A DNA stretch of 57,132 bases, counting the filler, from Ionaspis alba (taxonomy: Eukaryota): the NCBI GenBank assembly GCA_964255285.1. It is 4 parts of 4 records of this genome, joined end to end, with 100 filler letters (N's around TTAATTAATTAA, not from the genome) between each part and the next. Parts side by side here need not be neighbours in the genome. Positions count along the whole stretch, not along the records: positions 28,641 to 42,840 come from CAXUUL010000432.1; 3 more parts are not named here. One strand, written 5' to 3'. The notes beneath the pieces were generated by a model that did not search any database, was not told the DNA's origin, and saw only the letters and a program-made list of their open reading frames with translations. Made by a program: the position numbers and the translations under genes. Positions 5,002-42,940 of this stretch are shown piece by piece (the first letter of the stretch is position 1; every line of letters starts with the position of its first letter).

Positions 5002-6526
5002 TCAATAAAACATGTCCGCAGCTAGATTCCTCTTTCCACCCCTGCCTTGCAGCTTCTCGGCGAACAATTCCTTCCCAGCGTTCCCAGCTTTTGCAGGGAA
5101 AAGCTCCTTCACTGTACTTGAGGATGCGGTGCCGCGAATCGAGATACCTCGATCTACCTGCGATGCAGCACCACGAATTGAGATTCCTCGGTCAACTTTC
5201 TTGGCTGCACCACGGATACTGATTCCTCCTTGTTGTAGATTCTCCAGGTCTTCGGGGTCTGGGTCAGGATCCGAAGCTTTGAGCCGACCGTGTTGAGGTA
5301 GCGAGTCGTGAGCTCCGTCGATGAAAGGGACAGCCATCCCGGAGGCGAAGAGGTCGGCGGTCTCATCTGCTGCATCGAAAGCGTCAGAACGGCGATGATT
5401 GCCAATACCTGTCTTGAGTGGGAAGAGTTCTTTTTTTAGGTTCGTAGCTGCTTGCTTGTTGGGGAAGAGTTCTTTGGTATCGGTAGTAGCTGAGATTCCA
5501 CGAATGTCGTCGCCGATCTCCCGAGGCACTGCTTTGGAGGGAAACAACTCCTTAACGGCATTGGCTCTTGGGAAGGGATGTGGGTCGCGAGTATTGTAAC
5601 GGGGTGGAGGAGTTCTGCGTCGTTCTCGTCGACCGTTTTGACCATTACTCTCTCTGGTTGGTGAAGCACTTCGATCTCTTAACCGCCTGCGGTCACCGGA
5701 TCTCGGCCTGTACGAGTCCCCACGAAAACCCTCCGACCCGAGATCAGATGAGAAAGATGATCGGGAATTGCGTCGGTTACTGGCCGCCTGATTTCGTGAT
5801 TCAACGGCGTCTGCATCGTCGTCGTACATAGAAGCCGTAAATCCTTCGTCATTATCTCTGCGTCTCCTTCTTCGTTCTTCGTCGTCCCCGTACCGCGCTT
5901 TTCGGTCTCTACCGTGTTGACCATGCCTGCTCGATCTTCGGCGCTTCTCTCCCGGATCGAGCTCGGGATGTTTCAAATAGAACTTGCTAGCTAGGCGAGC
6001 CATTGGTTGCTTTTTATCTGTAATGACAGCTGTTCGTACTTGCAAGCTGGACTCGGGATGCGCCGAATATCGCTTTGCAACACGTAGTTGCAAACCGTGC
6101 ATATCTGTCAGATCGCCGCTGGTGTCAAGTGAGAAATGGAACAAGGCATCTGCAGCGGTTTCTGAACTATCGTAGATGATATTTGCTGAAGTGTCGTCAA
6201 TCCATTCGATCTTCACTGGTAACTGAGTAGGATAATGCTCCATGGCAAATGAGCGAATATCGTCGGTTTTCAGTTCATCAACACCTCGAATGTAAATTTT
6301 GTTGCGCACAATCTCTTCAGGTGGAAGATCATTGAGCGGTGAAGTGATACCGTCATTTGCATATGAGTTATGGGTAGGGATTTTGTTGTATACCTGAGGC
6401 AGAGATCAATTAGCTGTTCAGAAGAGAGCTTGGCCGGTGACTTACTGATGGATCTACCTGAGGAATATCGATCTCTGGTCCCAGGTCGATGTCAATATCC
6501 ATGTCAATATCCATGTCCATCACCAT
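5002..6526 (-). CDS. NCBP3/DUF2414-like RRM-type cap-binding protein
   Basis: KIYIRGVDELKTDDI...IEWIDDTSANIIY motif, an Arg/Asp-rich tail and repeated KELFP motifs. Start MVMDMDIDMDID at 6526 and an intron at about 6394-6445. Confidence 0.82.
5128..5232 (-). repeat. Coding tandem repeat of about 39 bp, 3 copies (GISIRGAA unit)
   Basis: GGISIRGAAKKVDRGISIRGAASQVDRGISIRGTA in the translated ORF. Confidence 0.85.
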
Positions 6527-6721
6527 TGGTTGATTAGTGTGTGAAAGAACCTCCATCGTGTCGTAAGCCTTGTAGATATGTTGAAGGTATAAAAGAGAAG
6601 TTAAAGCTCAGCGCGAGGACAAGAACGTTGCAATGATCGGAAACAATAAACGCCGATAGTCCGAAGCCAAATAGCCGCGAAGTCAAAACCCAAAACGCCA
6701 GACGCCACATATGAAACTCTC

Positions 6722-8611
6722 TCAAGAACGAAGCGCCTTAGCAGAACGTGCTCCTGCATCCTCGTCGTCATCCTCAGTCCGCTTCCGCTTTCCAAGCCCG
6801 CGTTCTTCCCAGAGTGAGATCGATGGGCTACGACTGGGCTCATGTTGAGACGTAGAGAGGCGATTGCCGGTGGATGGGCCTGGAGCTGATGCCAACTCAT
6901 CGTCCGAGATCTCGATGATCGGCTGTTGTCTAGCTGGTCGTTTCGACGGCCCTGGAGCATAGTCGTCTTCATTGTCAACTCGGTCCTCGTAATCGTCGTT
7001 GCCGTATAAATCGTCATCATTATCATCTTCGTCATAGTCCTCGACATCCTCTCCCTCGGCATCCTCGCCTTCAAGTTCTTCTTGATATCCTTCGTTGTTG
7101 ATGATCTCCTGGTGCTCCTCATTCTCGTACCCCTCTTCATTCTCTACGCTTTCATGCACTTCTTGATTTACCTCCTCAGCTATCTCCTCGTACTCATTCT
7201 CATCTGCTTCATCTTCCTCCAGTTGCTCCTCGTCCTCGTCCTCTTCCTCCTGCTTCACTATCTTCTCTCTCTTGCTCTTGTCTCTCAAGCCCGTCTGCAG
7301 ATAAGGTACTCGTCTGTGGATTCTCTCATCGAAATTGTGTTTCTTTCGTCCTTCTCGATTCCAGTGGTTCTTGACGCTGTTCCACGTACGATTGGTGCCA
7401 GTGGCCTCGGTAAGACGTCTTGCGATCTCCACGAATTTAGCTTCACCCGTGATCTCCTTTGCCTCAACGATCTCTTTCATGTACGTCCCAACAAGGCGCT
7501 TCTCGCGATCTGACCATGGAACTTGTTGCGCTCTTCGTCGTGATGGCCCGGAGGTTTGGGCTCCAGGAGTAGCATTCGGATCTGCGGAAGTGGTGTCTGC
7601 AGGCGCTAACTCCGAGTCCTGAGGCGCTCCCGCGGCGCTCTGGGTGGCTGGCGTCGCTCTCCAGGGCTCCTTTCGAGCTGTTGTGGGTCGATTGCTTGTG
7701 GCTGCAGGCGCTTGGCTTGTGGCTGTAGGGCGACTACTGGAGGGGGCAGGTCTCTTCCCGCCTTTCGCTGGTCGGTTGCGACGTCTTGGTAGCAGTTCAA
7801 ATGTCTCGGAGACAGTCTGCTCTGAATTGTAATCTTCATCATTTTCGTCGTCATTGTCATCATCTTGATCATCGTCCTCATTATCATCCTCATCTTCGTC
7901 CTCGTCCTCGTCTACGTCTTCGCGCTCATGCTGATGGTCATGCTGATGCTCAAACTCGAGCTCGTCCTCGTCCTCGTNNNNNNNNNNNNNNNNNNNNNNN
8001 NNNNNNNNNNNNNNNNNNNNNNNNNNNNNNNNNNNNNNNNNNNNNNNNNNNNNNNNNNNNNNNNNNNNNNNNNNNNNCTCGTCCTCGTCCTCGTGATGGT
8101 CAGATGAAACGAGTCTTGGGTGGAGCCGTCGTGCCTGCGGTTGACGCACTCGTTCCGATGTTTGCTCTACCGCTTCCATCTGGCGATTGGCTTCTTCCAT
8201 CTGGCGATTAGCTTCTTCCATTTGGCGATTGGCTTCTTCCATTTGGCGAGTGGCTGCGTCCATCACCTCGTTTGCTTCCTTCATTTGCAATTTTCCGGCC
8301 TCCAAAAGCTCTTTGCCCTCCTTTCTTTTACGATCCAAAAGCTCTTTCTCTGCGTCAAGTCCAGCATTGTAACCAGCAACGAACCAACCGTCACGTGCCG
8401 CACGGATTCGCCACTCAATATAATCGTTCAGAAGTGTGTCCTCGCCAATCTCATTGGCTGGTTGGGGAGGAACGTCAACGAAACCGGTAAAAGCCTCATG
8501 GGTAGTATCTCCAAGGGTCAGTGCTGTCGGGAGTCTACGATTGCGGTCTTGGAATCTTGACATGTTGCCATGCGAATTGATCATGGAGGGGTGTGAACCG
8601 GTATTGCCCAT
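6722..8611 (-). CDS. Orphan acidic low-complexity protein with coiled coil and a single Myb/SANT-like domain (spans an assembly gap)
   Basis: Long ORF with WSDREKRLV...KFVEIARRL...RTWNSVKNHWNR, which fits a Myb/SANT helix-turn-helix pattern. It also has D/E tracts, RQMEEAN heptads and an NLS-like GKRKR. A 100-N gap at 7978-8077 makes frame continuity uncertain. Confidence 0.65.
   Translation of the reverse strand: MGNTGSHPSMINSHGNMSRFQDRNRRLPTALTLGDTTHEAFTGFVDVPPQPANEIGEDTLLNDYIEWRIRAARDGWFVAGYNAGLDAEKELLDRKRKEGKELLEAGKLQMKEANEVMDAATRQMEEANRQMEEANRQMEEANRQMEAVEQTSERVRQPQARRLHPRLVSSDHHEDEDEXXXXXXXXXXXXXXXXXXXXXXXXXXXXXXXXXXEDEDELEFEHQHDHQHEREDVDEDEDEDEDDNEDDDQDDDNDDENDEDYNSEQTVSETFELLPRRRNRPAKGGKRPAPSSSRPTATSQAPAATSNRPTTARKEPWRATPATQSAAGAPQDSELAPADTTSADPNATPGAQTSGPSRRRAQQVPWSDREKRLVGTYMKEIVEAKEITGEAKFVEIARRLTEATGTNRTWNSVKNHWNREGRKKHNFDERIHRRVPYLQTGLRDKSKREKIVKQEEEDEDEEQLEEDEADENEYEEIAEEVNQEVHESVENEEGYENEEHQEIINNEGYQEELEGEDAEGEDVEDYDEDDNDDDLYGNDDYEDRVDNEDDYAPGPSKRPARQQPIIEISDDELASAPGPSTGNRLSTSQHEPSRSPSISLWEERGLGKRKRTEDDDEDAGARSAKALRS
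8176..8250 (-). repeat. 21-bp coding tandem repeat (RQMEEAN x3-4, coiled-coil heptad)
   Basis: catctggcgattggcttcttc units repeated on the + strand. Confidence 0.9.
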
Positions 8612-8663
8612 TTTGAGGAAGGAAATGGGTAGCCTGCTACCCGTGATATATGCACCAGTTGAC

Positions 8664-8819
8664 GATGTCCTGCCAGAGGACCAGTTTGATTAAGAATAGC
8701 TGAATGCTGATGTCCTGCCAGAAGACCAAAGTGGCAAAGGAAGCGATGACAATACTGTCCTACCAGAGGAACAGCTTGAAAGAAGGTGCGACGAATGATG
8801 CTGTCCTGCCAGAGGAGTA
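8664..8819. repeat. Array of four palindromic GTCCT-GCCAG-AGGA(C) motifs at 45-46 bp spacing
   Basis: Motif cores start at 8667, 8712, 8757 and 8803. The intervening 25-26 nt are diverged, but spacers 1/3 and 2/4 resemble each other. Confidence 0.85.
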
Positions 8820-8942
8820 AGTGGAAGGAGGAGAGTATGCAATGAAAAGGGCAACTGGATGAGAAGGAAAGAGGGTAAAGAATAGAAGAGAAGACGGAGA
8901 TATGTCTCTTTCTAGCATGTCCATCTTGGGTGGCTGGGACAT

Positions 8943-9215
8943 CAATAGAGACATCTTTCAACGGATATCCAGACATCAATAGGTTTGCGCGCATGCTCAA
9001 TAGGAGCAGTGTTGTGACAATAGGAACATAGCCTAGTGGCATTGTGCAGTGTGTTTCGTCAATAGCCAAATGACCCATGACAATAAGTGTGTGATGCTCT
9101 CTCAATATCAATGAATCAAATTTGATCAGTCTCCGAAATAGCCATCGTTACTGTTGATGGAGGTAGTTGAGAACGCCATCTTTCGCGCACCTATTGTCAA
9201 TAATTTGCACTATTG
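8943..9215. promoter_or_regulatory. Cluster of CAATAG/CTATTG motifs (MAT1-1-1/HMG-like binding sites) upstream of the orphan Myb-like gene
   Basis: Exact CAATAG at 8943, 8977, 8998, 9018 and 9060; CTATTG at 9191 and 9210; a full CTCAATAG at 8996-9003; near matches at 9081 and 9101. Confidence 0.55.
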
Positions 9216-11921
9216 ACATCTGCCACCACCAATCACACCTTACGAAAAAACAGACAGCTCGAAATATTTTTGCCAGCACTTTATGCAGCATCTACAGCAT
9301 ATCTGACTGTATTCCTGTAATTACACACCAAATACCTCCCATACCAAATGCTCGAAATGGGCCTCCGTAACATTTGTCGCAAACGACCTTTTCGAGTCTA
9401 GCCTGCTTCGGCTTCCTCCCTCGCTAAGCTCCGAAGGCGTCTGCCGGTGCGAGCCGCTGTCAAAACCTTCGCGCGCCGTACCTTAAGTGCACCCTCCATC
9501 ATCCAAGGAACATCATTGAGGCAGATCCAAGACTAAGGGAAGTCCACTAGTTTCCTTGATATCAGCTGCACATCGAACCGGATTTTGCAGCGGTATTTTC
9601 CAGCATCTAACTCTGCCATGGGGTTTGGTTTTCTTACTTCTAGTGCCAATTTTCCGTGGTAGAAATGCGCGATTTTTGTGAACTCTTTTGAAGGATATTT
9701 CTCGTACCAGGCTGAGGTCGGCATTGAGTTTGGGCTCGACCGGTGCACAACCATGGTTCAAGAGGACCGCTATCGGCATGGAATGCCGTATCGAAAGGAT
9801 TGCGAGTAGGTGAGTAATAGAATCGGTCCTCAATGATAGGCCAGTGAGATAACTGTTCTTTAGCAATGATGCTGTCTAAATTTCCTCACGCGACCCGACC
9901 AGAAGGCTAAGCGCTGAACGGTCTTGTGGTCATCTCGATGCCGTTTGAAGTCGAGGAAATCGTTCAAAGCACCTGCGAATTACCTGGAAAAACCTCCTTT
10001 GGCCCTTTTTGTCCAATTTTGCCACTGTATTGTACTCTTTCCTTCTGCCCAACGCGCGACGGGTCTCCCCACCCGATGTTCTCTCATATATCCCCTGGCA
10101 AAGCATCCAGACAGAAAGTTAGCTTCTCGGCCAAGCCTTCAGGCCCCACAATAGTCTCGGTGCCAGGCAATCTCGTTTTAGCAAAGCTTCTAGTCGCCTT
10201 AGTGCGATCATTGCTCAATCGTTCGTGAGTGCTTCTAGGAGCAAAGCTCCACCCCACAATGCAGATCATACCCCTCAGCACCAATATCCGCCAGCGCCTC
10301 CAATATGACGGTCTACGGATAGCAGGTTTTGCAAAGGCACGGAACGAGGCAACTCTCTCCTACCAATGCGCTTGCCCCTTTCCAAGATCCAAAAAAGTAC
10401 ACTTCCAATGCCTTCCACTGCCACCTGAACTAACCCACCCAAATGATGGGTTCCACTCCGAAAGCAGGCAAAGAATACTCCCCTAACAGGTTCTCCACAC
10501 TCTACATTCTGACAGACAGTACACCTAACTCCCGATATGTCCCGCAAGCACTATCTTCCTTCCAATCGGCGCCTAAGAGTCAATCTGCCAAGTCAAAATT
10601 GCCCATCACAAATACCCTATCCTAACTCAAACCCACGGTGTCTGTCCTGCCCACTGGGCTCAAGACCCTACCTTATCTTGCCCTGTCGATCAGGCACCAA
10701 TCCGCTCCGCCCTGCAGATCATCCGTTGGCCTCACATCGCCCTGCCAGGTTCACTCCTCTATCGCCCAGAAGACCACCGCCACAAGCCCTCTCGCTGCTG
10801 CCCTCTTTCGGCCGCACTCCACCTCCTACTCAGGCCCATACCCCACTGCCAACTCCCGGCGGAGTCACCCGTCCTTTACCCATGACGCCTTTGCCTAGAT
10901 CAAACTGTGGGTTGAGAGGCACCGAGACAGCCCTGGTGTGAGTGGATCAGCCCAAGCTCCCTTATGACGGCTAGACTTTCCGTTTGAGCCAGTCTGGGCT
11001 AGCGAGCTAGTGTGCCTGACTCGTTTGAATTCGGCTACATGGAGGGATTGGGGGGTGGTGTTTGTTGGGGGTCAGGGCTATGCCCACTTTTGAGGGAGGT
11101 TGGTGTGTCCCTCGCGCTTTCTGTGGGTACGAGGAGTTGGTGATGAGCAATTACGTAGCTGTCGCTCGATGCGCTCATAGCAAAACTGGAATCGTTAGTC
11201 GATGGGTGGACTGAGTTCTATGGCTTCCCAGCACGGATGAAATGACGAGTGAGTAAGGACGCCTTGAAGGAGGGTGAAACAGATCGTTGGGGAAGTGAAG
11301 AATGACATTCGTAGTTTGGAGAATCCCCATCGCGCTCACAGAAATCTTACCTTCACTCGAGCGATCAATAACGAGTGTAGAGAGCGAATGGATAGCGAGA
11401 GTCAATCAAGGAAGGATGGATGGATGGATGGACAGAGAGACAGAGGGAACATAGGCACGGAGGAGGGAAGGAGCCTGCGACCGATCGCTGTCGCACACAA
11501 TCATCATGACAATCAATTACTCAAATGAAGAAAGAAGTTCAAGTAAATATAACTCCATTGTAACTATGAATCTCTAAGTCAAACCACCCGAACGCCTCAA
11601 TCCCTCAAATACCTGCAACGCAATGCGATCCTGTTCTGCCCCCCGCAAGAGTATGCCCACACAGGCCCATCCATGCCCACCCATTCCATTCCAGAGTAGT
11701 AGTAGTATTCATGGGTATCTATACACAAACAAGAGAACGGAGTGTGACCCTCGGGATTTTTAAGCAAGCCTTTCCAAGGCCCCTGACTCCCCAAAGAAAT
11801 ATACACAACTCAGAGCCGTCACACTCCCTAGGATAATGCGGATAAACATAGCGAAGAACCAAGTTCTCCCGCGACCGAGCAGAGAGCTCACAGCGGAACT
11901 GGCTACTTTCCTTCTCTTCGA

Positions 11922-12779
11922 TCAGTTGATGATATTTGCGACCGCCATGCACGCTTTCCCCGCAGGCTGGCTCCGTTCCTCCCGTGGAGCGACTAATTCG
12001 CGACGGTCGTAGAAGCCCACAGCACTCGGACACGGATGCGCCATTTCGGGCGACACCGGATACCGTTCGCGGGAAACAGGACGCTTTCCCTCCACGCGCG
12101 GGGTAACGCTGACAGGGCCTTCTCGTAGATAAAGGTAAGGCGGTGACGGGTGCGGGATGTTGGGGGAGGGATGCGGAATATTGGGGGAGGAGGAATCGGT
12201 CATGAGGGAAGGAGGGTGGCCGTCGGAGAAGGGAGAGATCTGCGGGGCTGCGATCGGCTGCTCGCGCGAGAAGTTGAGGTCGAGCATCGAGGGGAGGGGT
12301 CGTTGCTGCGTGAGTAGCGAAGGGACGGGACTTTGCTGGGTACGGGATTGACGCCTGCGGGGCCGTTCCTCCTGCTGCTGTTGCCGCTTTGGCTGCCTGC
12401 CTGCCATGGCGGAGGCGGTTTCGGCACCGGCTTCCTCGAAGCCTCGCTTCTGGTTGGCACGCTCCAGTCGGTTCTTGCGTAGGTTGAACCAGTTCTTGAC
12501 CGAGTTGTCGCTGCGGCCGGGGAGCATCCGCGCGATCTGCGCCCAGCCTGGCCCGATGCTCCGGTGCATTTCAAGGATTAAAGCGGCTTCCTCTGGCCGT
12601 ATTGGCCCTTCTCGTAGGTCGGGGCGCAGGTTCTGGTGGTACCGTTCCCGGCACTGCTTCGCGTTCCGTGAGCCAACTTGGTCGGCGATCTTGACCCAGT
12701 TTCGGGGCTGGCCACCATTGAGGTAGATAAAGTGGCGGAGACGATTGTCTTCCTCTGCTGACCAGGATCCTTTGGCCAT
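11922..12779 (-). CDS. R2R3 Myb transcription factor, FlbD-like, intronless
   Basis: MAKGSWSAEED...NWVKIADQVGSRNAKQCRERYHQNLRP...PIRPEEA...WAQIARMLPGRSDNSVKNWFN. The RERYHQNL and PI-x-PEE substitutions are typical of FlbD. It ends in a C-terminal MAVANIIN motif. Confidence 0.9.
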   Translation of the reverse strand: MAKGSWSAEEDNRLRHFIYLNGGQPRNWVKIADQVGSRNAKQCRERYHQNLRPDLREGPIRPEEAALILEMHRSIGPGWAQIARMLPGRSDNSVKNWFNLRKNRLERANQKRGFEEAGAETASAMAGRQPKRQQQQEERPRRRQSRTQQSPVPSLLTQQRPLPSMLDLNFSREQPIAAPQISPFSDGHPPSLMTDSSSPNIPHPSPNIPHPSPPYLYLREGPVSVTPRVEGKRPVSRERYPVSPEMAHPCPSAVGFYDRRELVAPREERSQPAGKACMAVANIIN

Positions 12780-14238
12780 CTTGATTGGTGGTCTTATTGG
12801 TAGACTATGCGACGATAGATTGATTAGATAGTGTTCAGAATGATAGATGTTCAATATGTTTGGGGACCAGTGCGTGAGAATGACTTCTATGTGCGGAGGC
12901 GAACTCTTTGAAGATGATGCATATATAGGGAGATTTAGATAGTGCTAGATGGTGGCATATATGTTGGCAGAAGACACAGGGCAAGGAAACACATTGATGT
13001 ACTAAGGAAGAGTGCCAGACCATACTAAGTGTATGCGTGAAGGATGTGTGTCATGGCACGACAATGCAATATATGACTTACCAAAGATTGCTCTTTATGT
13101 GTTTTAGCGGAGGTTGCTGAAGAGATAACAGAAGTAGGTCTTCTTCACAGATACTATGCCTCAACGTACGTTAGTATCTGTCACGCTATTTGTAGATAGT
13201 TATCGTTGGAGGATGCTCATGAATCTCACACGATCAAACTGGTTCAAGGGCGCTGTACGCTGGAGGTTGCTAGAGCACGAATAAAGAAGAGGACTTACAC
13301 AAATCTTGGGATTTGCTAGTGCTTGTTGGATAAGATGAGGGAAGATGATGGAGAACAAGAGTAGAGGGTGGAGGCCGATTTATGTGCGTTTTCTGAGAGC
13401 ACTATCCAGCATCAAATCGGCGAGAAACACCGACACTGGTCCAAACCGAGATCTCGATAATCCGGTTCAATATCGATATCCACAGTAACTTAGAATTGTG
13501 GGACCATTGGCGTTGCTGAACGAGAGGCAACTCAAGACGACCAAGAAGAATATGTCGATAGCATGAACGGTGGTTGAGAGCAAATAGCGACCTTGGGTGA
13601 GAGAATTGGCACCAGGAGGGTACTATAAGGCTCGATGGGCCGTGGGGTCTGGGGCCGGGAATTGACAAGTAAGGTGGGGAGTAAGGCAGGAGCCACTTAA
13701 GAAGCTTAAAGCGATTTTTTGTACGTTGAACTCGAAGAGGGGCCTGATAAGAAGGTGTTGTTTTAAAGTTTTAGATCGACAAGAGACCGAGCCGTGGATG
13801 AGGAAGTCGTGAACCACAGAAAGGTAGGTCTTGGATTGTGGAGTGAGGACACACTCAGGAAAAAAAGTGACGGAACAATGCTGCGCTCTTTTTCCTAACG
13901 TTCACGAGCAGGCGACGACGATGAGAGGGAGGAAAGAAGAAGAATGATACGCCATTTTTTGGAGGGAGGGGTGGCAGAAGAGCAGGAAAGGTAGTGGTTA
14001 GGAACAGGCAAGCCTGGCGCCCGCTGACGAGGCTCAGATGAGAACATACAGACTATCTAGGAAAGAGGGACAGCGGCTCGTCGAGGAGCTAAACGCTTTG
14101 TGGCCGACGGGGAAGATGGAGGCGTCGATGAGGAATCGATCTTGGACCTCTTCTGGGAAGAAGGTCCGTTGGGTGAAAGCAATCTAGCCACCAAGGGACA
14201 GAACAGCATGACTCGGCCCTAGGGGGGGGGAGGGACGG

Positions 14239-14338
14239 NNNNNNNNNNNNNNNNNNNNNNNNNNNNNNNNNNNNNNNNNNNNTTAATTAATTAANNNNNN
14301 NNNNNNNNNNNNNNNNNNNNNNNNNNNNNNNNNNNNNN
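14239..14338. other. Artificial contig linker N44-TTAATTAATTAA-N44
   Basis: Six-frame stop 12-mer at 14283-14294, flanked by 44 N on each side. Confidence 0.97.
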
Positions 14339-22423: not shown

Positions 22424-23008
22424 AAAAGAAGAGATAGAGATAGAGAATAGGTCTCGGCAAATAGATGAATGATAGACCAAGGCNNNNNNNNNNNNNNNNN
22501 NNNNNNNNNNNNNNNNNNNNNNNNNNNNNNNNNNNNNNNNNNNNNNNNNNNNNNNNNNNNNNNNNNNNNNNNNNNNNNNNNNNAAGAGATAGAGATAGAG
22601 AATAGGTCTCGGCAAATAGATGAATGATAGACCAAGGCGGATTCTAGCATCGCTGGAAACCAATTCAAGACCTATTATAGATGATCGCAGTTCATGAAAG
22701 ATCTCTCTCCGAACCGTGCTTCACCACAGAAGACGCCTGGTCCGTGTTTCTTTCACAATCGACTCACTGGTCTGACCTGATAGATGTGGATGGAAGGCCT
22801 GTCAAATTAATATACACAAACATATCTACACCCAAGTCATTCTTTGGATCCAACAATCCTATTATCTAGCCTGGTGGGGTTAGAGCATTTTCTACGCCGA
22901 GCCCCGCGGTCCAAAGACCGAGGAGGGCTTGGCATGACTCATTCCGCCCGCGGTATACCTCCGCACTCTCTCTTATCGACTTAAACCCCTTCTACGACCT
23001 CAAGAGAG

Positions 23009-28540: not shown

Positions 28541-28640
28541 NNNNNNNNNNNNNNNNNNNNNNNNNNNNNNNNNNNNNNNNNNNNTTAATTAATTAANNNN
28601 NNNNNNNNNNNNNNNNNNNNNNNNNNNNNNNNNNNNNNNN
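28541..28640. other. Artificial contig linker N44-TTAATTAATTAA-N44
   Basis: Same structure as the linker at 14239; 12-mer at 28585-28596. Confidence 0.97.
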
Positions 28641-29567: not shown

Positions 29568-31658
29568 TGCAAATTACTACTTCCTTGTTCTGGCTTGACG
29601 GCGCAGGAGATCTTATGGTTTCCCTAAAGTAGCCTTTGGTTTGAGAAGAAAAAAGCAAGTTGATGGTGCGCTTGTTATTGGGTGGATAGGCTTGCAGGAG
29701 ATGGGGCAGCCTAAATGCAGATGGGTATGATAATGTGGAAGCTGGGTTTTGGTTTTGGTGGGGGTTTTTTTACGAGCAGAAAACAACCCCCCCGCCGCCT
29801 AGAGAATGAGGCATCCTTGGTTCAACGCACAACCCCCCGCTGCCTTTCGCAGAACCATGCAATCGATCAGAGGACGGTGCCTTATCACGCATGCAGCTTA
29901 CATACATCGACTGCATGACGGTAATAGTAACGACAACATCAGACTCGGATCCTCTGGGAAGTATCTATCGGGTGACCGTCACCTGGACTTGAGCGCCATC
30001 AGGTCAAGTTGCTCCACACATTTCCTCCATTATTGCGCAATAAGCCGCCGGGACCGTTGGTACCTTGAACTTATGGGTGACGTGACAGCGGTAGCTTACA
30101 GCAGCAGAGACAGCACGAGGAGGCCGTTGCGTGACCACCAGGATACCCATTCCTGGCCACAGGATCCATCATCTCACGAGAACAACGATGCTTCTAGGAC
30201 AGAATTGCCGTGCAATCTCTCTCTCCGGCATAAGAGTTCGAAGTTTCGGACGAACTGACTCTGCATGCTCCAATGTAGCACGCATAGATTGGTACCTTTC
30301 GTGGCTTTTTCAGCAGTCCCTGCCTTGTATGCACAACGTCCACATGGCTTGAATCTTGTCATCTTCCCTGCCGGATACGACGATAAGCAAAGCGACATTC
30401 GCCTTCGACGTCGATGCAGCTCGAGCATCACGCTCTTCCTCCACATGCACACGCCGCTCAAGTCGGTGGAAGCTTATTGATCCATCAAGGCCGTGCCCCC
30501 TTCGCTCTCATTTCGGTGAAGGGGCCGTCTCATCAAAGGCCAACAGCTGAAACACCAATGATAGAGCCTGCCATACAACCCTTCCACCACCTCGTGTGCT
30601 TTATCCTCCAACATTTTGACCTCTCCCGCCCATGTCTGACCGTGTCTACTTCCCTAGATTTCCTTCGCTGGCGAATCTCTGTGGCTTTTCCTCCACACCA
30701 TTCGTCGGCTCCCGGCCATTCTAAGTTCCACCTTGTTTGCTTCAGCCCTCACTAGGCACAGCTGAGGTGGAGGTCAAATTTCTACAGCAAACGCGCAAAA
30801 GACAGTGGAAGTGTGGAAGACTTCGATACGGCGTACATGCCCTGCCATCAGGTCCAGTCTGTGCTGACGCATACACACCAGGGAACTGCCCAGCGGTGTA
30901 GTTTCATCTTCATTTCTCTAGCCGCTTCATGCCTACCATTGATCGTCCGGAGTTTTGCCAATCCCCCTCCTGCATTGTGCCAATCTCTCCGTTCCTGCGG
31001 CCCTGGGCCGAACCCAATGCTCCATTTCGTATTTCCATCAATCTCCGCCATGCTTTGCCTGCATCGTTGGGTTGCCGTTGCGCCTCTACCTTCCCTGCGA
31101 ATATCAAGCAGCACTGCTCCTTGTGGCGATCCCTCCCCCTCAAATTATCCTTTCATCTATTCTCACTAGATCGCAGCTTAGATCCTAGCTAGGATTCGTC
31201 CCTTCCTGCTGACTTCACTCTGTTCTCTCNNNNNNNNNNNNNNNNNNNNNNNNNNNNNNNNNNNNNNNNNNNNNNNNNNNNNNNNNNNNNNNNNNNNNNN
31301 NNNNNNNNNNNNNNNNNNNNNNNNNNNNNAGCTTAGATCCTAGCTAGGATTCGTCCCTTCCTGCTGACTTCACTCTGTTCTCTCGACGTTCGTTCTCTTG
31401 GATGTACCTTCGTAGCGAATTCGTTCTGTTACTCCCTTACGACATCACGAAGTCCTCCCACGCCTAAAGACATCGATTACATTTTTTACCCTGCAATATT
31501 CTTATTTATGGTTTGCGAGAGACATACAGAAGCCCCACAACGAATCCTCTCAGAGATTACCATGCCCATTGCTCTAATTCTATAGCTGCTACGAACGTAC
31601 ATAAAGAGCAGTCCTCAGACCCGATATCTATATTGACCTATTCTTTGTTGGGTTGAGT

Positions 31659-36770: not shown

Positions 36771-38498
36771 TCAGTCCTCTTTGACCTCAGTGTCCTTCGC
36801 ATCCACCATCTCAAAATCATGCTCTGCATCCTTCTCCTTGTTCTTTGCATCCTCTTCCTCCTCATCGTCAGTATCCTTCATCTCTTCGTCCCCATCAACA
36901 CGAGCTCTGTGCTTTCCACGAAGCTTTACCTCCCCAGGAAGAATCTCACGCAGGCTCAAATCAACCTTGTCAACCGTTTCTTCTTCAGCACCAGGGGCAT
37001 TAGCCGCCAATCCGAGTTGAGCCAAGTGCTTGCCACGACGAGGTTTGAGCTGGATCTTCGATTTGATGGGATAGAAGTAGGCAGCCTTCTGGCGAGGAGC
37101 AGGTCCTTCTTCGTCTCCAACGGTGGCAGCGTGGGCGATATCATCCTCGTTCTCGGAGTCGTGGAGCGCAATGACGACTTCCTCATAGGGATCCTTAGCC
37201 TGAGTGCGTAAGCCGGTTTCATAGTCGCGGACGAGATCGTAACGGAAAGAGTCCTTCTCGCCGCCCTCGGAAACGTTGGTGTACAGCGCGGGATCGGTAT
37301 GGTCAGGATCATGCACATCAAACTTCTTCTTGATGTTCTCCACCTTTGCGTCCTCGTTTGGAAGATAGAAGCTGTAGGTGAAGGGCGGAGGACCAGGGTG
37401 CGGAACGTGTTCGCGGTCGGCTTTGTGAGCTTCGTGCTTGGTGGTCCATTGCGCGATCTGCTCATCACCGAGAGCGTGGTGACGAAGCAGTCCAACATCC
37501 ATGCGCTCATCGTGTTTGTCAGTGACGTCGGTGGGCTGACCAGCGATTTTCAGGACAGTGTAGCCTCCATCATCAGTGAAGCCATCGAGATCGGGAATGA
37601 GAGGATAGAAGTCGACGGGCTTGAGGTGAGGTTTTGTGGGATGAACGGGATTGTTCCATGCATCGAGCTCTGCTGGAGTGGGGTTGGCTCCACGCACGTT
37701 CTCCTTCGTGTCTGGCCCTTTGTACGCGTCTTCGGGGTTGGCAATGTCGAAGCTTTTGATCACTTCGCGTAGCATGTTCTGAGGGTCATCTTTTGAGTAA
37801 TGCTTGGCCGGACGACGCTTTGGTGGATTGGCAGCATTCGCAGCAGCTGCTGCTGCACGACGTCCTGGATCTTCTGCCACGTATTGAGTGCGACGTAAGA
37901 AGCTGATCCCACCGGCTTCGGTTTTGGGTTTGCCCATAGACTTGAGAGGTCGTAGCAGCTTACGGTCGCGTGGATGGACGGGAGGTGGAACGAGCGGTGC
38001 TTGAATAGCTATATATATACGATCAGTAAAGTGAACGTCTGGTCGAGTTTTGCAATGGCCAAGTGCATTGGGTCACATACAGCTCTCGTCACCATGAAAG
38101 ATGCCGGGCATCCCAACCAAATCGATCGGCATACCCAAAAAGGCATCAGCTTCAATGTTCGGAGGCTGCTCGCGGATGAGACGGTTGGCGTAGGCCGGTG
38201 AGGTATACTTCGAGAGACCTTCATACGGAATCTCGAGAAGCTTCGGAGCTCCCGGTGGAGGTGGAAGAGCATTGCTGTAGCGTTGACGAACAATGTAATC
38301 TTGGTGGACGACGCGCTCTTGACGTTGACCTTTGGGGTCAGCCATGGTATCAGTATCCTCGAGAGTGGGCTCGGGCGGAGTGTAGTGTTCGTCGTTCTCA
38401 AGAGTCTGGTCTGAAGGTGTGATCTCTCCTTCGTCGAACTCGATCTCAAACACACCTTCGACAGGAATCGAAGCTGCTTTGCCGGTGTTGTCCGCCAT
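36771..38498 (-). CDS. PAF1: RNA polymerase II-associated factor Paf1
   Basis: HQDYIVRQRYSNALPPPPGAPKLL, DAFLGMPIDLVGMPGIF and SFLRRTQY. Intron near 38000-38077. The start is either 38498 or 38345. Confidence 0.92.
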
Positions 38499-38817
38499 TT
38501 TTCGAAGCACTATGGAAGAAAGACGGACCGGAACGCTTGGCTCTGTCTGAGTGGAGGGTGAAGCGAACAGGCTAAAACTTTTGTGTGTGGACATTAGGGT
38601 TCAGCAGAGGCGCGCATGAAGTCTTGGCGATCTACGCGACTTCAAAGACTATCAAAGCATTCAAGGCAACACAGCTTTAGAATAGAGTCCAAAGCCCGTG
38701 TAAATCGGTTTGAGAGCTCAGCTCTTGGGTACTGCAATGATTCAGATTGTTTGCTGAATTATCTTTTGCACCAAATCTAGTATGTTACCTAGAACTACCG
38801 ATTTGTAAAGCAAATAA

Positions 38818-41704: not shown

Positions 41705-42840
41705 CTAAATGTCCTCTGGCGCCTCCACATCCGGACTCATGGGCAGATACCACAAACTGATTCTCGTCGCCAACTTCCAATAATCCTTCGGATCTGTCGC
41801 TCCAGCCTCGGGCTCCGACGACTCATGCGAGAACATCACCCCATTCCAGATATCGAAATGGCCCGATGCCGGCGCAGTACCACCAAACGCAATATCAAAG
41901 GCGATGATGCCGTTATGATTGACTAGCTCAGGATGATCGGCAGGGTTAAAATCCTCGCCAGATCTTTTGTTTTTGATGTCGAAGTCAGGCTCGCCCCAGA
42001 TGGTTGTGAGATATTTGCGCATTTCCTTGACGCGGATAGCGTATGGACGGCCGTCTTTGCAGATGATGGTCAGAAGGCCGTTGAACTTGCCGGGCTTCGG
42101 CAGGAGAACGCCAGAGTAATTCAAGCCGCGGGAGATACGCATGGTGCACGTGTTAGAGAACGCGCTGTTGTTGACCCAAGCGTCATTGAGAGCCCTGAGA
42201 ACTTCTGTGCTATTGGGATGCGAAGCATAGTCCCAATCTTCTCTCTGGAAAGTTTGGAAGTCTGGACGCGGTCGCCTTGCCCCGTTCGCAGCCACGTTAG
42301 ATGCTAAAATAGCACTTTCGGGCATTCCAAAGTTGAGAAGCACGGAACCTTCTGTGGTCGAAGCCTCGAGAGACGTCGGAGCACCATTGTCAGATGCTTC
42401 TTTGGCTGATTTGATGATGCTTTGAATGGCTGGGTCCTCGTGAGGGGCTTTGGCGGGCTGGGAGCCAGACATGTCCTGGAGCACTTGGACGGCTTGTTTC
42501 TCAGCTTCGGCATTAGGAATAAGTTGCTTGTCCTTCGCACGAGCAATGGAAGCCAACTTCTTGTCAGCGTCCGCGACAGCCTGCTGCTTGCCAGCGGTGT
42601 CGGCCATCTTGAGCGCTGCAGCAGATGCGCCAAAGCTGGTGGCGAGCGAAGTGGCGGCTGTCAGTCCCGCTGTAGCTAACTGCTGCGTTCCGGCAAGGCC
42701 AGCCATGTCACGGAATGCATTGGCGTTCTGCACAGCATTCAGGGCACCTGCCACCCCTTGAGGTCCAGGAGCAGGTGTAGCGTTGGACAGATTGATGATC
42801 GTGGATGGGAAGGGTGTGGGATCTGTCTTCGGTGGATCTG
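41705..42840 (-). CDS. 5'-truncated large protein ending in a Tae4-family (T6SS amidase effector, NlpC/P60-like) peptidoglycan endopeptidase domain
   Basis: The frame is open to the contig end. The C-terminal ~180 aa read RPDF...FSNTCTMRISRGLNYSG...DGRPYAIRVKEMRKYLTTIWGEPD...GIIAF...ASGHFDIWNG...ISLWYLP. This is collinear with the Tae4 pattern as I recall it (RPSF...NAC-x-IRMS...Y-x-x-RV...YL...G-x-PD...KGII...GH-x-x-LWNG...LW-x-LP). Confidence 0.85.
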
Positions 42841-42940
42841 NNNNNNNNNNNNNNNNNNNNNNNNNNNNNNNNNNNNNNNNNNNNTTAATTAATTAANNNN
42901 NNNNNNNNNNNNNNNNNNNNNNNNNNNNNNNNNNNNNNNN
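42841..42940. other. Artificial contig linker N44-TTAATTAATTAA-N44
   Basis: Same structure as the other linkers; 12-mer at 42885-42896. Confidence 0.97.

Follow-up and report, generated by a model that had tools for sequence, protein, structure and literature searches.

The window analysed in the present study, i.e. the whole stretch of 57,132 nucleotides from Ionaspis alba (GCA_964255285.1), is composed of four joined contigs, because the same linker, N44-TTAATTAATTAA-N44, was observed at three joints (14239-14338, 28541-28640 and 42841-42940). The core of this linker, TTAATTAATTAA, also occurs at 14283 and 28585 (three matches against zero expected), and the strandless segment at 42841..42940 is an artificial joint between two contigs rather than a biological feature. 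On the contig spanning 28641-42840, a minus-strand frame is open from 42840 to a stop codon at 41705-41707, yielding 378 codons (product P0001). This segment (41705..42840, stop included) is the 3' end of a fungal gene in which a carrier is fused to a Tae4 domain, and the 5' part has been lost beyond the contig end. The frame remains open to that end and reads DPPKTDPTPFPSTIINLSNATPAPGPQGVAGALNAVQNANAFRDMAGLAGTQQLATAGL..., exactly as quoted in the preliminary description of this DNA. P0001 matches the C-terminal 378 residues of P0002 with 100% identity, the latter being an unnamed protein of 776 aa that adds 398 residues upstream of the window product, and it aligns to residues 1086-1458 of the Trichoglossum protein P0004 (1,459 aa). 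Chance does not account for the open upstream frame, since this part is 91-94% identical to its nearest relatives and 50-65% identical to bacterial proteins. Using tblastn with a full-length relative, neither a second copy nor a 5' part of the gene was detected elsewhere in the window, and genes for Paf1 (split between two ORFs), an actin-related protein and RibD_C share the contig. In this lineage, recorded ORFs reach 758-793 aa at most, lengths that may reflect an upstream intron or a truncation of the gene.

Several features can be distinguished along the 378-codon product, all encoded on the minus strand. First, the most conserved block, PTPFPSTIINL...NANAFRDMAGLAGTQ, lies at 42683..42820 (residues 8-53 of P0001) and contains P, G, F, D, L and Q residues that vary little or not at all in the family consensus, PTxFPxTIINLQNAPxAPAPxGLxGxLxAVxNANAFRDMAGLAGTQ; the motif given in the preliminary description is therefore real, and this block is modelled as disordered, with pLDDT below 50 in both models. 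Second, an Ala-rich helical stalk comprising one helix of ~55 residues and two shorter ones is encoded at 42389..42697 (residues 49-151). Third, a small beta-hairpin, TSLEASTTEGSVLLNF, modelled as strands 554-560 and 563-569 of P0002, marks the carrier/cargo junction at 42329..42376; family-wide conservation ends with this hairpin (consensus ...PGSxxxAxTxxGxVxVxxG, with none after it), pairs of nearly identical scaffolds lose their identity here or earlier, and the carrier/cargo break in the window falls at ~42329. A variable linker, GMPESAILASNVAANGAR..., follows at 42275..42328, with low confidence in the model (pLDDT below 60 at P0002 residues 578-586), and the cargo, a Tae4-type NlpC/P60 peptidoglycan amidase domain, occupies 41741..42274. 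Compared with the four nearest relatives, identity reaches 91-94% in the carrier segment, 88-89% in the scaffold core, 67% in the linker and 73-75% in the Tae4 domain, indicating that the stretch initially flagged is the most constrained part of the protein and that the cargo evolves fastest.

The cargo was matched to the Pfam family Tae4 (PF14113) at residues 228-339 of P0001 (E 4.1e-19; 69.3 bits against a cut-off of 27), and the amidase domain conforms to the Tae4 fold. According to the available text of PMC3695027, the catalytic residues of the Salmonella Tae4 are Cys44 and His126. In the alignment, this dyad is kept as Cys232 of P0001 (codon 42146..42148), whose NTCTMRIS aligns with the NACPIRMS of Tae4 chains, and as His328 (codon 41858..41860), whose SGHFDIWNG aligns with TGHVTLWNG. 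The third residue, Asp137, and the flanking Cys135 and Cys139 are not kept: S-H-E stands opposite C-S-D, Asp137 is replaced by His or Glu, and the cysteines are missing. His or Cys serve at the position of Asp137 in other NlpC/P60 enzymes, and Tae4-type enzymes are described as toxic to Gram-negative cells only from the periplasm, as far as the available text of the same source extends (PMC3695027). Solved Tae4 chains comprise 154-176 residues; the fusion, initially regarded as atypical, is indeed so, the domain being preceded by no fewer than 190 residues in the window and no fewer than 588 in P0002. The next ORFs downstream of the fungal gene are unrelated, and no gene resembling Tai4 was observed. 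Tae4 tails were observed only in proteins of the fungal clade described below and in one unplaced protein, P0099, and neither the 76 prokaryote loci considered below nor the collected homologues included a bacterial scaffold ending in Tae4, suggesting that the bacterial donor combination has not been sampled. A search for other long carriers with the Tae4 part as the query matched only the two clusters of the gene itself and is uninformative.

The upstream part of the product belongs to a much larger family. A word-seeded search with residues 1-195 of P0001, restricted to long proteins, revealed 83 matches at E<=0.001 among 5,359 candidates, the tails of which had been assigned by precomputation to Tae4 (10), GH25 (9), DUF2272 (20), other families (6) or none (38). 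HMMER over 1.84 billion representatives returned 459 matches at E<=0.001, 131 at <=1e-10 and 16 at <=1e-30, and a further search gave 340 homologues. In full-length proteins of 1,400-1,900 aa, the flagged segment lies at approximately residues 1015-1200; at least 950 residues precede it in 143 of 220 proteins (median 1,037), and alignments of 30, 117 and 50 sequences each contain ~1,150 well-conserved columns and none thereafter. Thus, the 83, 459 and 340 matches of the separate searches dispose of the possibility that the carrier has no homologues, and these were found in both bacteria and ascomycetes, as the preliminary description had anticipated; however, the 190 residues that it took for the carrier are the last tenth of a scaffold of ~1,150 residues and not the carrier itself. 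The scaffold showed no significant match in Pfam, NCBIfam, PHROGs or PDB sequences, and two look-ups in the ESM Atlas yielded unnamed clusters only. A description of the carrier was absent from the literature searched, the scope of which did not extend to subscription journals and supplements, and the locus tags of five fungal members did not occur in the literature searched either. The carrier family is large and apparently unnamed.

The architecture of the scaffold was examined in an AlphaFold2 model of residues 1-1180 of an Arthrobacter member built from 50 aligned sequences (mean pLDDT 72, pTM 0.50). In this model, beta-sandwich domains occupy residues 1-290, six strands of 20-30 residues each are predicted at 401-605, and an alpha/beta region with pLDDT of ~90 spans 610-1000. 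The outer hairpins formed by the long strands are confident, and the middle hairpin, with its Gly-rich hydrophobic tip, has pLDDT of 30-45. At the carrier end, the disordered motif leads into a helix of 56 residues, which is followed by two shorter helices and a hairpin. In 107 of 117 aligned rows, a Gly-rich stretch lacks charged and amide side chains over at least 18 residues (median length 24 residues, ~36% Gly). The best rows of a Foldseek comparison with the PDB were the pore forms of aerolysin, anthrax protective antigen, lysenin and leukocidins, and these matches are weak (E 6e-4, probability 0.14, TM <0.1); pore-forming toxins were absent from the top 50 of a second look using VIA-align. 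The scaffold was consequently not filed as a pore-forming toxin, given the weak Foldseek matches, their lack of reproduction by VIA-align and the pLDDT of 30-45 in the hairpin. An origin from a phage tail lysin or a tape-measure-like protein is likewise unsupported, as PHROGs match the GH25 tail only, and a viral structure library gave no clear match.

The part of each protein following the carrier match was considered a tail when it comprised at least 100 aa, and BLASTP single-linkage clustering of 207 such tails gave 55 groups, 29 of them singletons, with 39, 24, 13, 13, 12 and 12 members in the largest. A Pfam match in the tail was obtained for 17 of the 55 group representatives. Above the cut-off, these included DUF2272, Tae4, GH25, Beta-lactamase2, OmpA, tyrosinase, Peptidase_M15_4, NlpC/P60, M23, GH75 chitosanase, PG_binding_1 and a Hedgehog-N-like domain (HH_signal, E 4e-39); below it, three further OmpA matches and one PETase-like match were observed, and one tail is an IS66 transposase. 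DUF2272 is placed in the NlpC/P60-CHAP-amidase group of papain-like enzymes in the available text of PMC10318531, and with this classification, the Pfam matches indicate that the recognisable cargo is dominated by cell-wall enzymes and binders. Among 6,441 aligned pairs, unrelated tails were observed on scaffolds up to 83% identical, and the same tail type on scaffolds only 28-31% identical. In pairwise alignments, identity collapses 60-135 residues past the AFRD motif, most cleanly directly after the small hairpin. These results support a polymorphic-toxin-like reading: the proposed combination of a conserved carrier and a variable C-terminus is borne out by 207 tails in 55 unrelated groups, and the homologues clearly do not all share one C-terminus.

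The distribution of the family was determined by scanning 185,579 prokaryote species, each represented by a single genome; 310 stretches matched, 260 of them encoding a relative, and 76 loci were kept. Relatives were observed in Actinomycetota, Acidobacteriota, Bacteroidota, Gemmatimonadota, Chloroflexota, Pseudomonadota (many of them Marinobacter), Myxococcota, Verrucomicrobiota, Planctomycetota, Bdellovibrionota and Thermodesulfobacteriota; two Nitrososphaeraceae relatives come from metagenome bins and should be regarded with caution. All-against-all BLAST of 1,116 ORFs at the 76 loci, based on crude ORF calling, revealed no conserved neighbour, as no family occurs at more than 7 of these loci. 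In addition, no secretion-system, contractile-tail or phage-tail genes were identified by Pfam among 104 ORFs within 5 kb at 10 diverse loci, where the neighbours are scattered mobile and defence genes (IstB, resolvase, HsdM, KAP NTPase, TraG) and housekeeping genes. By the same crude gene calling, an ORF of 80 aa or more begins on the same strand within 250 nt downstream of 26 of 75 genes, and these ORFs are mostly unrelated singletons. Thus, the carrier gene is a single, self-sufficient, stand-alone gene. Two of the observations count against the toxin reading: no consistent immunity gene was found downstream of the 75 carrier genes, and no signal-peptide-like N-terminus was recognised by eye in ten members, fungal and bacterial.

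Fungal members with names were obtained from Trichoglossum hirsutum, Cadophora sp., Purpureocillium lavendulum, Cyphellophora europaea, Pseudogymnoascus australis, Rhexocercosporidium sp., Capronia coronata and Cryoendolithus antarcticus, and the five fungal species that were looked up belong to five classes of Pezizomycotina. The annotated fungal models comprise 1,433-1,530 aa. In an unrooted tree of 101 rows and 573 columns (IQ-TREE quick mode, LG+G4, three short rows dropped), the window protein and all seven named fungal rows included fall into one clade of 19 rows with SH-aLRT 99. This clade is nested among bacterial rows, and its neighbour comprises 14 rows from Actinomycetota, Chloroflexota, Acidobacteriota, Myxococcota and Nitrososphaerota, joined with support of 83; as the tree is unrooted and quick, it is the breadth of bacterial diversity surrounding the clade that gives the direction of transfer. 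In two metagenome relatives of the fungal clade, L077 and L078, the entire scaffold is spread over two frames, with gaps of 58 and 49 nt between them. These gaps start with GTAAGT, contain CTAAT or ACTAAT, end with CAG and interrupt the frame in phase 1 within QTKR|IQKIEW, and they are ordinary spliceosomal fungal introns. Two types of tail occur in the fungal clade, namely Tae4 and an unrelated tail of ~230 residues that is carried by Cyphellophora, Capronia, Cryoendolithus and unnamed relatives and has no match in Pfam or among PDB sequences. As the family is mainly bacterial and the fungal genes form one nested clade in which two tail types were observed, the polymorphism proposed for a fungal effector system is chiefly bacterial. 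Within the fungal clade itself, the presence of two tail types only counts against a polymorphic reading.

Taken together, the segment in the window is probably the 3' end of a resident fungal gene from a carrier-cargo family of bacterial origin, with a Tae4-type amidase as the cargo, and would represent an antibacterial weapon captured from bacteria. Given the cell-wall-directed cargo and the intact Cys-His dyad, the fungal protein was most likely taken from bacteria as an antibacterial weapon by an ascomycete ancestor. Based on the models and alignments, the scaffold would be arranged as N-terminal beta-sandwiches, very long beta-hairpins whose hydrophobic, Gly-rich tip is conserved, a possibly PLAT-like beta-sandwich and an alpha/beta domain, followed by the conserved motif, the helical stalk, the small hairpin and an interchangeable C-terminal domain that, where recognisable, would mostly attack or bind the bacterial cell wall. 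The gene is self-sufficient, its hosts include organisms that lack peptidoglycan (fungi and the archaeal bins), and the scaffold has features suggestive of membranes; for these reasons, we infer, tentatively and short of calling it probable, that the scaffold itself might bring the enzyme to the wall, binding the envelope and inserting the hydrophobic hairpin tip, and thus reach the substrate without a dedicated secretion machine. A bolder and doubtful extension of this proposal is that the scaffold is a self-contained delivery machine, probably oligomeric, that would bind the envelope, insert the hairpin and its Gly-rich tip, and pass or present the cell-wall enzyme located behind the helical stalk, and that ascomycetes and ammonia-oxidising archaea captured it for use in antibacterial immunity. 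As no partner genes are needed, such a carrier could cross domain boundaries, and the two fungal tail types might, in this same speculative reading, mean that fungi have exchanged the carrier tip at least once. As no signal peptide is visible, a still bolder variant can be considered in which the fungal protein might work within the hypha, against bacteria that invade it or reside there.

A simpler alternative to self-delivery, which we consider rather unlikely, is that the scaffold serves as a targeting or anchoring platform and not as a translocator. Adhesion modules, modules that bind the wall or membrane and the stalk would then concentrate an extracellular lytic enzyme on the prey, similar to lysostaphin or zoocin-type bacteriocins and phage lysins with targeting domains. 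However, 1,150 strongly conserved residues and a Gly-rich hydrophobic element exceed what known targeting domains need, no signal peptide is visible, and the available text of PMC3695027 reports Tae4-type toxicity only from the Gram-negative periplasm. Self-delivery was also weighed against the view that the proteins are the cargo of a machine encoded elsewhere, such as a T6SS, an extracellular contractile injection system or a T7SS, with the scaffold as a loading adaptor and the fungal copies as relics that have lost such a machine. Tae4 is a classic T6SS effector, and in the available text of Zhang et al. 2012 (PMC3482391), a PVC-type system delivers toxins with C-terminal OmpA or glycohydrolase domains, consistent with this view. 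It nevertheless appears very unlikely, in that genes for such machines were lacking within 5 kb at 10 loci and a conserved neighbour was lacking at 76, no PAAR, VgrG, Rhs, LXG or DUF4157 match to Pfam was obtained in the family, the family spans Actinomycetota, Chloroflexota, archaeal bins and fungi, and the fungal scaffold is more conserved than its cargo.

An equally improbable explanation concerns the fungal gene itself, which might be a decaying relic truncated to its last ~776 residues, or might have its Tae4 part made alone. The lineage ORFs of 758-793 aa, the Met located exactly at the junction (NFG-M-PES) and the 5' part missing from the window are compatible with decay or separate expression. 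Against these, the frame is open in five related sequences, with identities of 91-94% in the carrier and 88-89% in the scaffold, the annotated fungal models reach 1,433-1,530 aa, in L077 and L078 the complete scaffold is encoded on both sides of a single intron, and the junction Met is not conserved in P0004. Finally, bacterial contamination of the fungal assembly, which a mostly bacterial family and a 1.1-kb intronless part in the window might suggest, was rejected as extremely unlikely on the basis of the spliceosomal introns in L077 and L078 and the neighbouring eukaryotic genes, with Paf1 and the actin-related protein 0.8-5 kb away on the same contig and relatives located on fungal contigs of 0.38-4.2 Mb.

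If the preferred reading of a captured carrier-cargo weapon is true, several consequences would follow. The scaffold would constitute a new polymorphic-toxin carrier that is large, widespread, specialised in cell-wall enzymes and independent of known secretion machines. Beyond one enzyme domain, a whole carrier-cargo weapon would have passed from bacteria to fungi, where introns were then gained and the tip was changed. The carrier could also explain how peptidoglycan hydrolases pass the outer membrane, and would offer a natural chassis for the delivery of lytic enzymes to bacteria. In lichen and rock-inhabiting fungi, the gene would point to an active antibacterial defence.

The capture of Tae by eukaryotes, the spread of GH25 across domains and the polymorphic toxins are already known, and the carrier itself is undescribed in the literature searched. 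Modular bacteriocins, such as pesticin, colicin M, zoocin A and lysostaphin, combine targeting or translocation modules with a C-terminal peptidoglycan-directed enzyme and require no injection machine. These proteins are much smaller than the carrier, use known receptors together with Ton/Tol import or signal peptides, and show no link to the carrier in sequence or fold. Nucleases are prominent among the cargo of bacterial polymorphic toxin systems. The present family resembles those systems, as presented in the available text of Zhang et al. 2012 (PMC3482391), in its constant N-terminal part, its hypervariable and recombining C-terminal toxin and its patchy spread over phyla. Unlike them, the constant part has no known trafficking domain or secretion signal, no regular downstream immunity gene was found, members of the carrier family occur in fungi and archaeal bins, and the cargo consists mostly of cell-wall enzymes and binders. 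For GH25, the available text of Metcalf et al. 2014 (PMC4241558) describes the movement of a lysozyme from bacteria to archaea and fungi, the archaeal muramidase domain being located within a larger gene, the full-length version of which killed E. coli. That gene comprises 1,725 bp, and no carrier family shared with others is described in this text (PMC4241558), whereas GH25 is one tail among many in the present family. The Tae4/Tai4 effectors of Salmonella, Enterobacter, Agrobacterium and Serratia (PDB 4jur, 4hfk, 6ijf and 4bi3) are stand-alone proteins of ~160 aa that are injected by the T6SS and paired with Tai4. In contrast, the fungal domain described here is the tail of a large scaffold. 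A eukaryotic parallel is provided by the Daes, e.g. nvDae4 of Nematostella, which are small proteins consisting of the amidase domain only and were reportedly first presented by Chou et al. in Nature in 2015. Similar to a Dae, the fungal gene descends from bacterial tae and resides in a eukaryote, as judged from the nested clade, the introns and the eukaryotic contig. Dae genes are described, in the available text of bioRxiv 10.1101/2021.05.13.443009, as Tae-derived genes that were taken up by eukaryotes and are used against bacteria. Unlike a Dae, however, the fungal amidase came in, or was added, at the tip of a carrier of 1,150 residues, and another branch of the fungal clade bears a different tip on the same carrier.

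The eukaryotic origin of the window contig that bears the carrier-Tae4 gene was confirmed by a homologue of Paf1, which is encoded on the minus strand in two ORFs, 36771-37937 and 38073-38594, matching profile positions 98-391 and 1-71, respectively, and this division is consistent with the presence of at least one intron. The four contigs of the window are united by N44-TTAATTAATTAA-N44 linkers (14239-14338, 28541-28640 and 42841-42940), and 100-N scaffold gaps are located inside three of them (7978-8077, 22484-22583 and 31230-31329); apparent features crossing either kind of junction are artefacts. Short canonical fungal introns (GTAAGT...CTAAT...CAG) were observed in both metagenome relatives of the fungal clade, at 3241-3298 of L077 and 2579-2627 of L078, interrupting at the identical position one of the most conserved motifs of the scaffold, QTKR|IQKIEW. 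The carrier protein of Purpureocillium lavendulum (P0007; 1,860 aa) is named "acetyl esterase" in the database, a name not supported by the Pfam search of this protein, which returned only Tae4. The C-terminal extra residues of P0007, approximately 470 in number, are of low complexity and rich in Lys, Glu and Asp, and probably represent an adjacent gene joined on by the gene model.

Tandem paralogue pairs of the carrier are the arrangement of one deep-branching subfamily from bacteria, which contributes 26 rows to the tree; they were observed at loci L060, L062, L064-L070 and L073-L075. At L064, for example (5564-9082, 9096-9374 and 9371-13588), the first copy, with a length of about 1,170 aa, lacks a tail and is shorter than the second. 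At seven loci the two copies are separated by a conserved ORF of approximately 94 aa. This subfamily may be a two-component form of the carrier. Elsewhere, the carrier gene of Roseibium has an ORF for an Amphi-Trp domain (91 aa; L036, 8846-9121) as its immediate upstream neighbour.

Carriers of full length, one with 1,863 aa, are also encoded in two metagenome bins of Nitrososphaeraceae, ammonia-oxidising archaea (L007, 9806-15397; L019, 1294 onwards), on separate branches of the tree, with binning errors being possible. Unusual cargos were also detected on this carrier, namely a domain resembling the Hedgehog N-terminal signalling domain (P0128, residues 767-901; E 4e-39), a tyrosinase (P0018, 1369-1556) and a GH75 "fungal chitosanase" domain (P0196, 1312-1428). 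The GH75 cargo hints that some members are directed at fungi rather than bacteria.
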